From Eledone cirrhosa (lineage: Eukaryota): a DNA stretch of 64,000 nt. The translations under genes were made by a program, and so were the position numbers. The stretch lies in contig CAXHJY010000343.1 in the NCBI GenBank assembly GCA_964016885.1, positions 62,001 through 126,000 on the forward strand. Reading direction: 5' to 3'. This document shows, piece after piece, positions 7,790 through 55,590 of the stretch. The notes beneath the pieces are model-generated. The model was not told where the DNA came from, searched no databases, and saw only the letters and a program-made list of their open reading frames with translations. The stretch's first letter is position 1, and every line of letters starts with the position of its first letter.

Positions 7790-8830
7790 TTCCTATCATT
7801 TCTTCACTATATTCATTGTTAATTCTCACCTTGCTCACTGTTTCTTTATACATGGCTCTCACATGCCATTCATCCACTCCTAGTTTTCTAAGGGTCCACC
7901 AGAAAATGTAGCTGGGGACTCTGTCAAAGGCTTTCTCCAAGTCAAGGAAAGCTAAGTATAGGGGTTTACTTTTAGCTAGGTACTTCTCCTGTAGTTGTCG
8001 TACAAGGAAAAGAGCGTCTGTGGTACTTTTACCTGACACAAACCAAAACTACATTTCATCTAGATCAATTCTGTCTCTGATTAGTTGTGCTATAACTCTT
8101 TCTGTGACCTTCATGACCTGGTCAACTACCTTAATGCCTCTATAGTTTCTCCTATCTAGGGCATCTCCTTTACCCTAGTAGCAGTTAACGATGATGCTGC
8201 TACGCCAGTCATTTGGTATGACCCCATTCTGCATTACTTGGTTTACTATCTGGGTGTCCATAGTATGTCCCACCATTCCAGATGCCTTCAACATCTCAAC
8301 AACTATCTCCAAAGGCCCAGCTGCCTTGCCTGTCTTCATAGCTTTGATTGCCTTATATACTGTACTACCTTTAACTTGCACAGCTGGTCCCTCTATTGGA
8401 TCAATGTGGGGCAGACTATCTTTTACCAATTTATTCTCCTCATTTAGTAGTCCCTCGTAGTGACACTTCCAAGCTATCTTCTTATCAGTAAAAGTGAGAG
8501 CAAGTACACCATCATCATTAAGGACACACTTCTCCCTGACAATATCACGATTTTCCTTGACACATTGTTTAGCAATCCTGAACACCTCACGTTTTTGGTC
8601 CTCGTGTTGTAGAAAATGCTTGAACTTTCTATCCCCTGCTTCCCTTCTTGCAAGGTACACTTGTCTCCTAGATTCTATCCTAGCCACTTGATAGTGTTCT
8701 CTACTTCCCCCATCCCACCATACTACTCAACCCAGCCCATTGTCATTTCCCACCCAGAAAGGTTTATAACATCGTTTTTTACCCACAATGAATCTAGAAG
8801 ACCAGCCCCCACCCACCTAGTCTCTTGAAC
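7790..8830 (-). mobile_element. RTE LINE internal fragment (RT N-terminal half), frameshifted
   Basis: ORFs 8175-8687 and 7779-8039 (GKSTTDALF...LAFLDLEKAFDRVP) match the RTE at 52599-54557. Confidence 0.92.
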
Positions 8831-8960
8831 ACAAATATATATATATATATGATGATATGATCTCTCTCTCTATATATATATATATGATCTCTCCCTCTCT
8901 CTCTCTATATATATATATGATCTCTCTCTCTCTCTCTCTATATATATATATATATATATA

Positions 8961-9645
8961 TAGGTTAACACAAATCAATATATTTGATAAACACAAATAT
9001 CCTCATATTTATGTTTGTATTATAAATGACCAAGTTAGCTAGAAAGAAATATACTAATAATAATATTACAGTTTGCCTAAGATAATACATCATAAATCAA
9101 CAAAGACAAATTGTACTGGCAATGGCCGTAGTGCTTGGACAAATTTAAATTTCAAAATCAAACCCGTTCCGTAGACAGGTTTAAACCTTAAAATCCAAAT
9201 ATGTTTCGAATAATGAAAAAGTGGAAGAAAATACCGCATTTTGATCTCCTCAGCAAGCACTATAAAAATTGGTATGTTCCACTTCAAAATATTTAGAAAG
9301 ACTATTTAGCGCACGAGGTAACCTCATGCGGTTATCCAGTGTCTAGCTAGTCACATACTCGTGCTGCTAGAAATAACAGCCGTTTGTATGGGACGAAGGA
9401 GCAGTGAAAAATCAATAATAATGAGTTCAAATCTCGGGCGATCATTTACAATGAAATAGCTCGAAGAAAGATTATTTCTGAGCCGTGTAATATAGGTTAA
9501 CACACATCAATATATTTGATAAACACAAATATCCTCATATTTATGTTTGTATTATAAATGACCAAGTTAGCTAGATAGAAATATACTAATAATAATATTA
9601 CAGTTTGCCTATCATGACTTAAGATAATACATCATAAATCAACAT
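8961..9645 (-). mobile_element. Small element with ~140-150 bp direct terminal repeats and an internal degenerate hammerhead; Penelope/retrozyme-like remnant
   Basis: 8961-9102 is repeated at 9494-9644. Minus strand 9170-9258 reads CTGAGGA...GAAACA...TGTC. Flanked by (TA)n. Confidence 0.5.
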
Positions 9646-10519
9646 ATATATATAATCTCTCTCTCTCTCTCTATATATATATATATAATCTCTCTCTCTC
9701 TCTATATATATATATATACTACATACATATATATATATATACTACATACATATATATATATATACTACATATATATATATATATATATATATATATATAT
9801 ATATATATATATATATTACATACATACACTATAATGTTGTCCAAAGAATGGCGGAAACAGGTTGACACCAATGATGTCACAGCTCATCATTTAATATCCA
9901 ATCTGATGAGTTCCACTCCAGTTGCTAAGGTCTGGGAAGTTGAGATTTGTTACAAAAAAATCACTAAAACCAAGATACTGGGTTGGTATAACTACCTGGT
10001 TTGTATGTGGTGTGGTATGATGTATGTCTGTTGTGTGGGATGTGGTGTGTGTGTGCAGAGTGATGTGGTTTTGTGTGTGTGTAGTATATAGAGGAAACTT
10101 TACAAACATAGGACCTAGAAGGGGTGTGTGAGGACTCTACCCCCTACAACCCTCTCAGGAATGGGTAAAGATAAAGAGAAGAAAGTTGTAAAGTATTTTC
10201 AAATGTTAATTGTTTAAAAAAGTCCTAATTTGAACTGTCATGACCGTACCATCCAACAAATATTAAAGTTGTAAAATTGTTTTTATTTAAACTTAAATGT
10301 GGATATTTTGTCACAAATATGAATATAAACCAGTTAAGGTTTATAAAATAAATAGATTCATCTTTTGTTTTGTTTTTCTTGCACTGATGGAGTCATAGGG
10401 GTGTCACTGTGGACATTTGAAGCTTGGTGGAGCCCTTCACTCTCCAGGTTGGAACAGTTGATTTCTTCCAGAGAATGAGAGAGAGGAAGTGAGAAAGAAA
10501 TATAGAGAGGAAGAACAGA

Positions 10520-52534: not shown

Positions 52535-54940
52535 AATTAAGGCCAAAAAGCAGGCTTGGAAAGTATGGCGGGATGGGGGAAGCAGAGAAGACTATCAAGT
52601 GGCCAGGAGGGAAGCTAAGAGACAAGTGTACTTCGCAAGAAGGGAAGCAGAGGAAAGAAAGTTCAAGCATGTCCGACAATGCGAGGACCAAAAACGTGAG
52701 GTGTTCAGGATTGCTAGGCAATGTGTCAAGGAAAACCGTGATATTGTCAGGGAGAAGTGTGTACTTAATGATGATGGCATACTTGCCATCACCGACGCTG
52801 ATAAGAAGGTAGCTTGGAAGTGTCACTATGAAAGGCTACTAAATGAGGAGAATAAATGGGAGAAAGACAGTCTCCCCCACATCGACCCAATAGAGGGACC
52901 AGCAGTGTTAGTCGAGGGGAGTATAATAAGTAAGGCAATCAAAGATATGAAGACGGGTAAGGCGGCTGGGCCTTCGGAAATAGTTGCCGAGATGCTGAAG
53001 GCATCTGGTACGGTGGGACACACCATGGTCACCCGGATAGTTAACCAAGTCGTACAGAATGGGGTTGTTCCGAAGGACTGGCGTAGCAGCAGCATCGTTA
53101 ACTGTTATAAGGGTAAAGGAGATGCCCTAGATAGGAGTAACTATAGAGGCATTAAATTAATCGACCAGGTCATGAAGGTCACGGAAAATGTAATAGTGCA
53201 ACTAATCAGAGAGAGAATTGATCTAGATGAAATGCAGTTCGGGTTTGTGTCAGGCAAAAGTACCACAGACGCTCTTTTCATTGTACGACAACTACAGGAG
53301 AAGTACCTAGCTAAAAGTAAACCCCTATACTTAGCTTTTGTTGACTTGGAGAAAGCCTTCGACAGAGTCCCCCGTTCCATTATCTGGTGGGCTCTTAGAA
53401 AACTAGGTGTTGACGAATGGCTTGTGAGAGCTATACAAGCCATGTATAAACAAACAGTCAGCAAGGTTAGAATTAACAATGAATATAGTGAAGAGTTTAG
53501 CGTAAAAGTTGGCGTCCATCAGGGCTCTGTTCTCAGCCCCCTACTATTTATTATTGCCCTTCAGGCTATAACAGAGGAGTTCAAGACCGGTTGCCCATGG
53601 GAACTCCTATACGCAGATGACCTAACACTCATAGCTGAATCAATGGCCGAGCTAGAGAAGAAATTCCAAACATGGAAGCACGGCCTAGAATCAAAAGGCC
53701 TTAAAATTAACCTGGCTAAGACTAAAGTTCTAGTTTGTAAGAAAGAAAATAAGGTGGCGGTCCCTTCCGGGAAGTGGCCATGCTCAGTGTGTAGGAAAGG
53801 CGTAGGTAGAAACTCCATTTTGTGTCCCAAATGCAAAGTATGGGTGCATAAAAGATGTAGTGTTAAGCTAACTAAGAACATAGACTTTACATGTGGCCGG
53901 TGCTCTGGTGCAATAAGTAGCAGCAAGTGCCCACAAAATACTAGCTCTTTCAACTGCGCAGAGGATTCTATAGAAATAGTGGACAGCTTCTGTTACCTGG
54001 GTGACAAAATCAGCAGTGGGGGAGGGTACTCTGAAAGTACAGCAGCTAGAGTCAGAACTGGATGGAAAAAGTTCAGAGAGCTTATACCACTATTAGCCGC
54101 TAAAGGGTTCTCCCTAAAAATGAAAGGCAGGTTGTATGATGCCTGCATACGAACAGCAATGTTGCATGGCAGTGAGACCTGGGCATTGTGTGCAGAGGAT
54201 ATACGCAGACTAGACAGAAAAGAAGCTTGCATGCTCCGCTGGATGTGTAATAGTAATATACGTGAACGGCAAAGCATAAACGAACTAAGGAAAAAATTAG
54301 AAATAAGAGGGATCAGATGTTGTTTACTCGAGAGAAGGCTACGTTGGTATGGTCACGTGATGCGCATGAAAGACGATAGCTGTATAACAAAGTGCAGGGC
54401 ATTAAAGATAGACGGTAGCCACGGAATAGGCAGACCCAGAAAGACCTGGGACGAGCTGATAAATTCCGACCTCACACACTTACACCTCGCCAAGACAATG
54501 TCACTGGACCGAGACCTTTGGCGGTACTCAGTAATAGAGAAGACCCGCCTTACCTAAATACAAAGTAAAACCTACTACAGTCAGTAGGCATCTCTAACAA
54601 AATACACGCCCGTCCCCCCACCCCCACCCCGTCCACACCGCCCCTTTCAATGTAAATTTATGTTGGTGCCACAACATCCAGGCCGAAACAAATGAGATCG
54701 TGTAGGTATCACGACAACAAAACACACAGTCCATGCTGTAATGTGACTGTGTAGGCAACACGGTAAAAACCTCCCTGCCCCACACTGTAAATGTGGTTGG
54801 TGTTAGGAAGGGCATCCAGCTGTAGAAAACCCGCCAGAGAGTCCTATGCAAGCAAGATAATCACTCTTGCCTCAAGTGGGAAAACCCCCGTCCAAACCCA
54901 TGCAAGCGTGGAACACGGACGTTAAACGTTGATGATGATG
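52535..54940 (+). mobile_element. 5'-truncated RTE LINE with an uninterrupted 652-codon RT frame (52599-54557)
   Basis: NYRGI, QFGF, AFVDLEKAFDRVP, GVHQGSVLSP, LLYADD, YLG, RRLRWYGH; 3' UTR and (gat)n tail; endonuclease missing. Confidence 0.96.
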
Positions 54941-55069
54941 TATATTTTGTGTATATGTAGCACGTACACTATATACATAGTACTTCTATGTATATATTTA
55001 GTGTATATTTTTGTGTATATGTAGCACATACTATATACGTATGTATATATATAGTGTATATTTTGTGTA

Positions 55070-55590
55070 TCATCATTACACTACTTTTCCATGCTTGCAT
55101 GGGTTGGACGGGTCCTTCTTAGCACGACATCTCTCCACTAGATGCGTTCCTTCGTCATCTCCTCTTCCAGTATTCACAATTTGAGTTAAGCTCTCACAAC
55201 ATTTGCCCCTGACTTTCTTGGTCATCCTCTCCTGCAGCTTCCTTCCACTAGGATTTCTCCAAGCTCTGTATTTCTCTAACATATACGTTGCAGATCCAAC
55301 AAAACATGGTTGCTTCATTTTTCTCCAGTCTAATCGCATCATCTACAGTCACAGCCCATGTTTCTCTAGCATGCAGTATTGTGCACTTCACACAGGCTTT
55401 ATATACCCTTCCTATTGTGTGTAGGGAGAAACCTTATGTTATCAGCAGTAGTAGTTCACTAAACATCCATCCTATCCTTATTCAAGCCACTCTACTCTTG
55501 GCATACCCTCCTCTGCTGCTGATTAGGTCACCTAGATAGCAGAAGCTATCAACCACATCTACAGATCCTTCCTGTGACTGGAAACGGTGT
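55070..55590 (-). mobile_element. Older RTE-family 3' fragment
   Basis: SVDVVDSFCYLGDLISSRGG...; tail catcattacactacttttccatgcttgcatggg. Its first ~140 bp are mirrored at 14686-14820. Confidence 0.8.

Follow-up and report, generated by a model that had tools for sequence, protein, structure and literature searches.

Results

The window, i.e. the whole 64-kb stretch of DNA that was analysed, contains six paralogous ZNF loci within 43 kb. Their arrays consist of tandem C2H2 fingers with TGEKP linkers, and the canonical fingers are located on the minus strand in the left loci (5, 15 and 11 fingers) and on the plus strand in the right loci (12+1, 2 and 8 fingers). The initial annotation had stated that all left genes are encoded by the minus strand and all right genes by the plus strand. 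This rule holds for the six ZNF loci, but not for a ZNF-derived 80-bp minisatellite at the breakpoint of cassette B (23190..23621), which lies on the left side in the opposite, plus orientation. The assignment of the genes to the octopus-type C2H2-ZNF genes is supported by the leader and finger 1, which are identical to O. bimaculoides ZNF664 at 33 of 68 positions (49%). When B' was used to search for homologues, the matches listed (at least 120) were all generic ZNF proteins. The finger-1 motif matched 0 metagenome stretches, Rfam gave 0 matches, and the single full frame scanned for it (C') contained no KRAB domain.

Self-BLAST of the window showed reverse-complement homology in all three of the pairs A/A', B/B' and C/C' that had been proposed initially. 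Within the bounds given there, inverted matches covered 4616 of 5101 bp of C and 4081 of 4781 bp of C', 8016 of 8504 bp of B and 7520 of 9304 bp of B', and 3790 of 4941 bp of A and 3191 of 4566 bp of A', counts that include off-diagonal finger matches. The top self-match joined 18699-23189 to 50270-45901 (90%, 6262 bits); a control with the reversed window gave 6 matches, the strongest of 105 bits. The same comparison bore out the order C,B,A on the left versus C',A',B' on the right, and hence the view that this is no simple palindrome.

Cassette C (24320..29442, minus strand) comprises a 5' flank, a broken ZNF gene and a 3' flank with 90-bp and 72-bp minisatellites. Its gene (27166..28654, minus strand) has a +1 frameshift in the leader, which leads to a stop after 47 codons, and a further stop in finger 2, beyond which a 408-codon array is open. 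Cassette C' (34087..38890, plus strand) carries an open frame of 461 aa with an octopus-type leader and 12 canonical fingers (34884..36269, plus strand), behind which lies, in tandem and confined to C', a second, decayed C-type array (36270..37550, plus strand). The two cassettes are separated by an unmirrored, repeat-filled spacer of 4.6 kb without N (29443..34086), which includes a Helitron-like pair, a 1.2-kb element with 85-nt inverted ends, a hairpin and TA runs.

Cassette A (7800..12853, minus strand) contains a 5' flank, the first 317 bp of which are B-like, a broken ZNF gene, a 3' flank and an internally deleted RTE LINE that is cut off at a MITE; about 0.8 kb of foreign DNA (8880-9700) interrupts this cassette. 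The gene (11430..12239, minus strand) stops after 111 codons, has a further stop downstream and includes three near-identical 83-bp frameshifted finger units. Unit A' (40779..46735, plus strand) has a 5' flank truncated by foreign DNA at 40779 and an open frame of 83 aa with 2 canonical fingers (41677..41928, plus strand). Its end had initially been set at 45349, which lies inside the RTE LINE of A', and the unit runs on to 46735. Fragment X (13855..14666, minus strand) is the 3' flank of another A-type unit and differs by 9-12% from A as well as A'.

Cassette B (14681..23189, minus strand) repeats 45901-55210 in inverted orientation at 4.9% divergence and lacks the RTE body. Its gene (18306..19412, minus strand) has an open frame of 368 aa with 13 canonical fingers, and further fingers follow its stop. 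Cassette B' (45901..55210, plus strand) consists of the RTE tail of A', a spacer and the B' unit, in which the ZNF gene (49557..50318, plus strand) is open over 253 aa with 8 canonical fingers. Two of the genes are thus dead (A and C) and four are open (A', B, B' and C'). Cross-matches A-B' and B-A' extend over 2.3-4.0 kb. A, B, A', B' and, as a fifth member, fragment X form one subfamily, and A' and B' form a tandem dimer; both features had been overlooked in the initial annotation.

Among 746 gap-clean columns of the 3' flank, the informative sites grouped A+A' against B+B' by 22:0:0, and the grouping of B+B' received 100% bootstrap support, in agreement with the proposed pairing. An earlier count of 115:1:0, obtained from a longer block with gap-adjacent columns kept, was dropped and is replaced by this one. 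The divergence between the arms is 4.9% for B/B' (249 of 5090 sites), approximately 6-9% for A/A' (43/746 in the 3' flank and 75/858 in the RTE) and 24% for C/C' in the 3' flank. Judged by these values, the three pairs are not a palindrome of a single age.

These divergences also bear on the possibility that two haplotypes were joined in inverted orientation during assembly. Within a species, ZNF clusters may show unusually high polymorphism, as stated in the available text of PMC12575710, but the flanks of the arms are 4-24% apart as compared to an octopod heterozygosity of 0.08-1.1% in the accessible parts of PMC7656900 and PMC9795677. Moreover, such a mis-join is at odds with the three unlike divergences, the altered order, the private insertions, the third A-type fragment, the differing finger numbers and the unmirrored 4.6-kb spacer without N, and the open frames of 253-678 codons speak against a noisy consensus. 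Mis-joined haplotypes are therefore unlikely on the sequence evidence, and we would give this reading very little credence.

The RTE LINE of A' (43520..46735, plus strand) is 5'-truncated and decayed. It represents the same insertion as the one in A, since the 5' end and a stop are common to both, which indicates descent rather than independent insertion. The same applies to the A-type RTE 3' end in cassette B (22352..23189, minus strand), which is 5.7% diverged from the A' copy and has frameshifts in common with it. This piece appears to be the leftover of a lost A-type unit that formerly preceded B; the initial annotation had overlooked this tail at the start of B. The RTE LINE of B' (52533..54940, plus strand) is likewise 5'-truncated, but its frame is open over 678 codons and its insertion is independent of the one in A/A'. 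Comparison of the A' and B' elements gave an omega of 0.20, and none of 200 neutral simulations reached a value that low; the idea that the RTE was part of the ancestral A/B unit was therefore rejected. A 2.2-kb RTE body is confined to B' (52347-54525).

The abundance of RTE tails, MITE-like pieces and Helitron-like pieces in the window, and the finding that the A'/B' RTE match stems from independent insertions, would fit the idea that the cassettes were carried as passengers of transposons (Pack-type or Helitron capture), or that the homology reflects shared repeats alone. However, the homology is collinear through flank, gene, repeat and spacer, and inspection of the junctions by eye revealed no common terminal motif or target duplication at the cassette ends, which lie inside or adjoin unrelated repeats. 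In the 15 of 52 listed frames that were scanned, Pfam identified RT, endonuclease, PHD-like and zinc-finger families but neither a transposase nor a Rep/helicase. This explanation is hardly credible. From the initial proposal of modular cassettes that were duplicated, inverted and reshuffled, the duplication, inversion and reshuffling are retained, but discrete mobile modules are not, in view of the repeat-bound ends; the pairs also differ in age.

A block of approximately 680 bp at the 5' end of the C/C' pair stands out by its low divergence (28466..29142, minus strand, versus 34389-35071; 30 of 675 sites differ, i.e. 4.4%). The flanks of this block are 13% and 15-24% diverged, with 30/225 differences upstream and 26/150 just downstream, and the contrast between the 5' block (28/450) and the 3' flank (117/490) is highly significant (p=1.5e-14). 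Only 1 of about 41 synonymous sites and 8 of about 160 non-synonymous sites have changed. Purifying selection does not explain the tract, because so few synonymous changes would not be expected at a divergence of 23% (p=3e-4). The tract is likely the result of old, local gene conversion. As the comparison of paralogs was confined to the 64-kb window, the donor could be a C-type paralog outside it instead of the opposite arm.

Signs of conversion elsewhere are less distinct. Cassette A appears from its sequence to be a mosaic, and gene conversion is suggested by a direct test of its 5' end (7/317 versus 55/746 differences, p=5e-4). However, relative tests were not significant (p=0.37 and 0.10), and by the former the B-like 5' end may equally reflect constraint. 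A run-permutation test gave p-values of 0.003-0.04 in five of six pairs; it was not counted as evidence for pair-specific conversion, because the runs extend over a single region that evolves slowly in every one of the copies.

It is conceivable that the locus is an old full palindrome whose arms were periodically overwritten by conversion over long tracts, in which case the divergences would date conversions and not duplications. The one clear C/C' tract, the short spacer and the identical runs of 224 bp in the 5' flank of B/B' and 134 bp in A/A', for which uniform divergence predicts only 0.003 and 0.005, respectively, agree with this. Nonetheless, B and B' show hardly any variation across the 134-bp run either, the 224-bp run lies within a 5' flank that evolves slowly in several pairs, and no kilobase-scale tract near 100% identity was found. 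Furthermore, conversion preserves order, whereas the order differs between these arms, and the finger arrays are not homogenised. We regard a rewritten palindrome as quite improbable. Of the initial suggestion that the arms may exchange by gene conversion, one old 5' tract in C/C' is upheld; ongoing homogenisation is not, because the neutral flanks are 4-24% apart and the finger arrays differ strongly.

B and B' have 4 contact signatures in common, out of 15 and 9 distinct ones, and C and C' only 1, out of 11 and 11; the finger pattern used overlooks a number of degenerate fingers, among them finger 2 of A. Between B and B', the contact residues showed pN 0.56 versus pS 0.35 and the frame 0.09 versus 0.21, figures that are descriptive only since they derive from non-independent all-against-all pairs.

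Discussion

The locus comprises six octopus-type poly-C2H2 cassettes, arranged head-to-head as three inverted pairs that differ in divergence, and was likely shaped layer by layer through local segmental duplication, deletion and occasional gene conversion. The order and direction of the events, the repair pathway and any function are our reconstruction from the homology, divergences, mosaic tract and gene states observed. The C and AB subfamilies would have diverged first (5' flanks 28% apart), followed by an old inverted duplication that produced the C/C' core (3' flank 24%). AB-type units would then have multiplied in tandem on both sides, giving rise to A, A' and X as well as to the lineage of B, which are 6-12% apart, with the RTE inserting in the A lineage prior to the separation of A and A'. 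Subsequently, a segment of A-type RTE tail, spacer and B gene may have been copied in inverted orientation between the arms (4.9%). Repeat-adjoining deletions could then have eliminated the body of the A-type unit that preceded B, together with most of the unit following B, so that C,B,(X),A remained as the order on the left. At about the time of the inverted copying, the 680-bp 5' block of C and C' (flank, leader and finger 1) would have been copied between them. Alongside, the 84-bp finger arrays would have undergone minisatellite-like turnover, A and C would have died, and C', B' and B would have stayed open.

This order of events is not the only one possible, given that the age gap between A/A' and B/B' is modest, that A is a mosaic and that A and B have their left ends 552 bp apart in one RTE. 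A single permuting event would also yield this spacing. Duplication through a circular intermediate is recognised by circular permutation with complementary breakpoints, a clean end-to-start junction and one age. Here, the A'B' dimer could have been copied via a circular or template-switching intermediate, opened in the RTE, and inserted inverted and circularly permuted, with the C 5' tract arising in the same burst. In line with this, the end of A and the start of B correspond to 45349 and 45901, i.e. to complementary pieces of one RTE, the C 5' block (38/666) and the B cassette (249/5090) are equally diverged (p=0.34), and private changes in the 3' flank are nearly equal in number on A, B and B' (14, 14 and 15). 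On the other hand, the B-to-A junction is not clean, as fragment X (9-12% from either of A and A') and 1 kb of foreign DNA lie within it; A terminates at a MITE; and in matched blocks A/A' is more diverged than B/B' (CMH p=0.03 for three blocks and 0.003 with the RTE), even though the gap is modest (p=0.15 on the 3' flank alone). We therefore hold a one-event origin to be unlikely, and an ordinary birth-and-death poly-C2H2 cluster, comparable to mouse KZFP clusters, to be the best reading.

Sex-chromosome palindromes have collinear arms that are more than 99% identical and are kept alike by arm-to-arm conversion. The present cluster resembles them in its inverted arms and short spacer, and perhaps in conversion between the arms, but its arms are 76-95% identical and permuted. 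It also has parallels in the young mouse KRAB-ZFP clusters. For these, the available text of PMC12575710 describes segmental duplications that span several genes and bring along TE insertions older than themselves, as well as partial duplications, scrambled blocks, finger 'fingerprints' that turn over rapidly, numerous pseudogenes and inversion, the latter between clusters. Those clusters involve ERVs and a megabase scale, whereas the one described here involves RTE LINEs and small DNA elements over 50 kb, and the one full frame scanned (C') lacks their KRAB domain. Variable base-contacting residues in a conserved frame are also a feature of transposon-tracking poly-ZNF families, octopus being among the species included according to the accessible part of PMC10547256; by analogy, the cluster genes are putative transposon-binding transcription factors.

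With the coleoid clusters of PMC9068888 and PMC9795677, the locus shares tandem C2H2 arrays in clusters, TGEKP linkers and a ZNF664-homologous leader. The available text of these papers attributes the coleoid expansion to tandem duplication and describes the clusters at chromosome scale, giving neither an inverted mosaic nor a conversion tract at breakpoint level. A 2026 review, in its accessible part, states that rearrangement breakpoints have not yet been analysed in coleoids (PMC12988792). Our search, which covered few subscription papers, found no paper on a locus of this kind, either for octopus with gene conversion and an inverted repeat or for ZNF clusters in general with palindromes or conversion. 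The cephalopod C2H2 expansion having so far been described at chromosome scale, the locus provides a small worked case with duplications of differing age, ends adjoining RTE or MITE-like pieces and one datable conversion tract.

The locus shows that octopus clusters behave like mammalian KZFP clusters. Partner genes have flanks that are 95% alike, yet most of their DNA-contact signatures differ, and as a result of this array turnover their DNA targets would by now differ. The change from young to old ancestry at the boundary of fingers 1 and 2, seen in C/C' and also among A, A', B and B', leads us to propose, tentatively and as one possibility, that inverted octopus ZNF neighbours exchange a 5' module (flank, leader and invariant first finger) by conversion while their arrays diversify freely. 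As a single locus, the cluster is ordinary; it would gain in significance if this exchange proves general across clusters. If so, the regulatory ends of these genes would stay synchronised while new DNA-binding arrays are plugged in.

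Three inverted pairs of zinc-finger cassettes

Comparison of the window with itself revealed three inverted pairs of zinc-finger (ZNF) cassettes at the positions assigned to them by the initial annotation, with A, B and C in the left arm on the minus strand and their partners A', B' and C' in the right arm on the plus strand. This strand pattern holds for all six finger arrays. The best inverted match reached 6262 bits versus 105 bits in a reversed control, a signal far beyond chance, and the window contains no N. The proposed pairing was also borne out, as the informative sites in 746 clean columns placed A+A' against B+B' with a ratio of 22:0:0. 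These are genes of an octopus family, since the leader and first finger of C' share 33 of 68 residues with O. bimaculoides ZNF664.

What had been overlooked is that A, A', B and B' form a single subfamily. They are mutually 5.8-9.0% diverged in the 3' flank, and the C subfamily is 28-29% away from them in the 5' flank. In the right arm, C' is followed by A' and B' as a tandem dimer whose period is ~8.1-8.9 kb. Along the genes, the left arm reads C, a minisatellite, the 3'-terminal part of an A-type RTE (a LINE), a spacer, B, a third A-type 3' flank (13855-14666; 9-12% diverged from those of A and A'), a 1-kb stretch of foreign DNA and A. The RTE piece preceding B differs from the A' copy at 28 of 488 sites and has frameshifts in common with it, indicating that an A-type unit's tail was copied along with B. 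A minisatellite built of zinc-finger units shortened to 80 bp, in the opposite direction, lies exactly at the B breakpoint (23190-23621). Another, with a 72-bp unit (25045-26263), is a recent expansion, as its 17 copies are 97% identical and confined to C.

From their ATG, the ZNF frames of C', B', B and A' span 461, 253, 368 and 83 aa with 12, 8, 13 and 2 canonical fingers, respectively, while stop codons occur after 47 codons in C and 111 in A. Three near-identical tandem 83-bp frameshifted finger units in A (11810-12060), which jointly restore the frame, carry the same deletion and would therefore not be produced by random read error. The arms differ by 4-24%, and also in order, insertions and finger number, and a third A-type fragment is present; excerpts of two reports give octopod heterozygosity as 0.08-1.1% (PMC7656900, PMC9795677). 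Thus, judged from their sequence, the arms do not look like alleles, although a small doubt remains.

Divergence and probable order of events

B and B' differ at 249 of 5090 unmasked sites, A and A' at 43 of 746 in the 3' flank and 75 of 858 in the RTE, and C and C' at 117 of 490 in the 3' flank. In matched blocks A/A' have diverged more than B/B' (CMH p=0.03; p=0.003 with the RTE included), the gap not being significant when the 3' flank is taken by itself (p=0.15). The C and C' arrays have only the first of 11 and 11 contact signatures (DNA-contacting finger residues) in common, and their best-matching fingers differ at a median of 13 of 66 bases, versus 4 shared signatures and 4 differences in B/B'. 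This is consistent with an old C/C' split.

The most economical account, which we consider probable, is that a series of local duplications and deletions, together with occasional conversion, would have generated this arrangement. The main rival, one permuting event, gains from the end of A and the start of B lying 552 bp apart in one RTE, but the third A-type flank and the age gap between A/A' and B/B' speak against it, and we regard it as improbable.

The RTE copies of A and A' are one insertion, as judged from their identical 5' end and common stop. Between the B' and A' copies omega was 0.20 over 639 codons, lower than in any of the 200 neutral simulations run for each of two settings, which indicates that the B' copy was a separate insertion at the homologous TA-rich site. 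This site behind ZNF genes has received RTE insertions more than once and in both directions. The LINE body in B' (52533-54940) has an open frame of 678 codons, and a PHD-like cysteine motif follows its RT domain. Had this frame been present since B and B' split, the probability of its still lacking a stop would be 0.11-0.19; in 2.4 kb of B/B' spacer, 13 of 15 indels are frameshifting. By our own arithmetic, an undisturbed frame as old as the split is therefore unlikely (<1%), and the insertion, probably a recent one, likely postdates the B/B' duplication.

Probable gene conversion

The suggestion that the arms exchange by gene conversion stands in part. In a ~680-bp block of C/C' (29142-28466 versus 34389-35071) 30 of 675 sites differ, compared to 30 of 225 upstream and 26 of 150 downstream. 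Constraint does not account for this, because 1 of ~41 synonymous and 8 of ~160 non-synonymous sites differ in the coding part; recent shared ancestry explains the similarity. The divergence of the block equals that of B/B' (p=0.34), and either the opposite arm or an unobserved paralog may have served as its donor. However, no near-identical kilobase tract was found between the arms, and there is thus no sign of ongoing homogenisation.

Its pattern of sites suggests that A is a mosaic too. The first 317 bp of A show 7-8 differences from B and B', no farther than B is from B', although this 5' end did not stand out significantly from constraint in a relative test (p=0.37). Near 10404-10375, A has B-type states where A' and the third A-type flank have others in common. 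Informative sites among A, A', B and B' are mixed through finger 1, and from finger 2 onwards nearly all separate A+A' from B+B'. The boldest reading left, that inverted neighbours exchange a 5' module while their finger arrays turn over freely, is a tentative one that we would not favour.

Cassette ends and neighbouring repeats

All cassette ends fall within or next to a repeat. A terminates at a MITE-like element that has inverted ends, foreign DNA cuts the 5' sides of A' and A, and a reversed RTE tail forms the end of B; inspection by eye revealed no shared terminus among them. MITE-like short hairpin or inverted-end elements occur at 33938-34061, 20435-20629, 48373-48598 and 7613-7801, one immediately upstream of the B/B' 5' flank and another at the distal end of A. 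A frame fragment at the truncation point of the A' 5' flank (40428-40780) presumably resembles a Penelope-like RT region. A 1.2-kb spacer element (32437-33660) between 85-nt inverted repeats, 98% complementary and each with a TGACGTCA motif, is likely a young non-autonomous DNA transposon; it has no further copies within the window and no evident target duplication. At 30122-31430, a 630-700-bp element is present in two tandem copies, whose minus-strand end, a GC hairpin followed by CTAG, we take to be like a Helitron 3' end. A fragmented minus-strand LINE with endonuclease and RT domains (56229-60431), presumably CR1-like, has a cysteine- and glutamine-rich frame upstream. An imperfect (GGT)n array of 2.2 kb (1852-4015) is a source of long spurious frames.

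Relation to known clusters

Mouse KZFP clusters, as described in the accessible portion of PMC12575710, show scrambled gene blocks, partial duplications, an inversion and strain-specific fingerprints, and behave like the present cluster, which also matches coleoid C2H2 clusters as far as these are covered in excerpts of PMC9068888 and PMC9795677 (general background, likewise in excerpt: PMC12988792, PMC13218726, PMC9115989). Among the papers listed by literature searches none describes an octopus locus like this one, although supplements could contain locus-level descriptions. The locus is real, mostly ordinary, and a cluster of a known kind. By analogy with the system outlined in the excerpted text of PMC10547256, its products may have a transposon-binding role.
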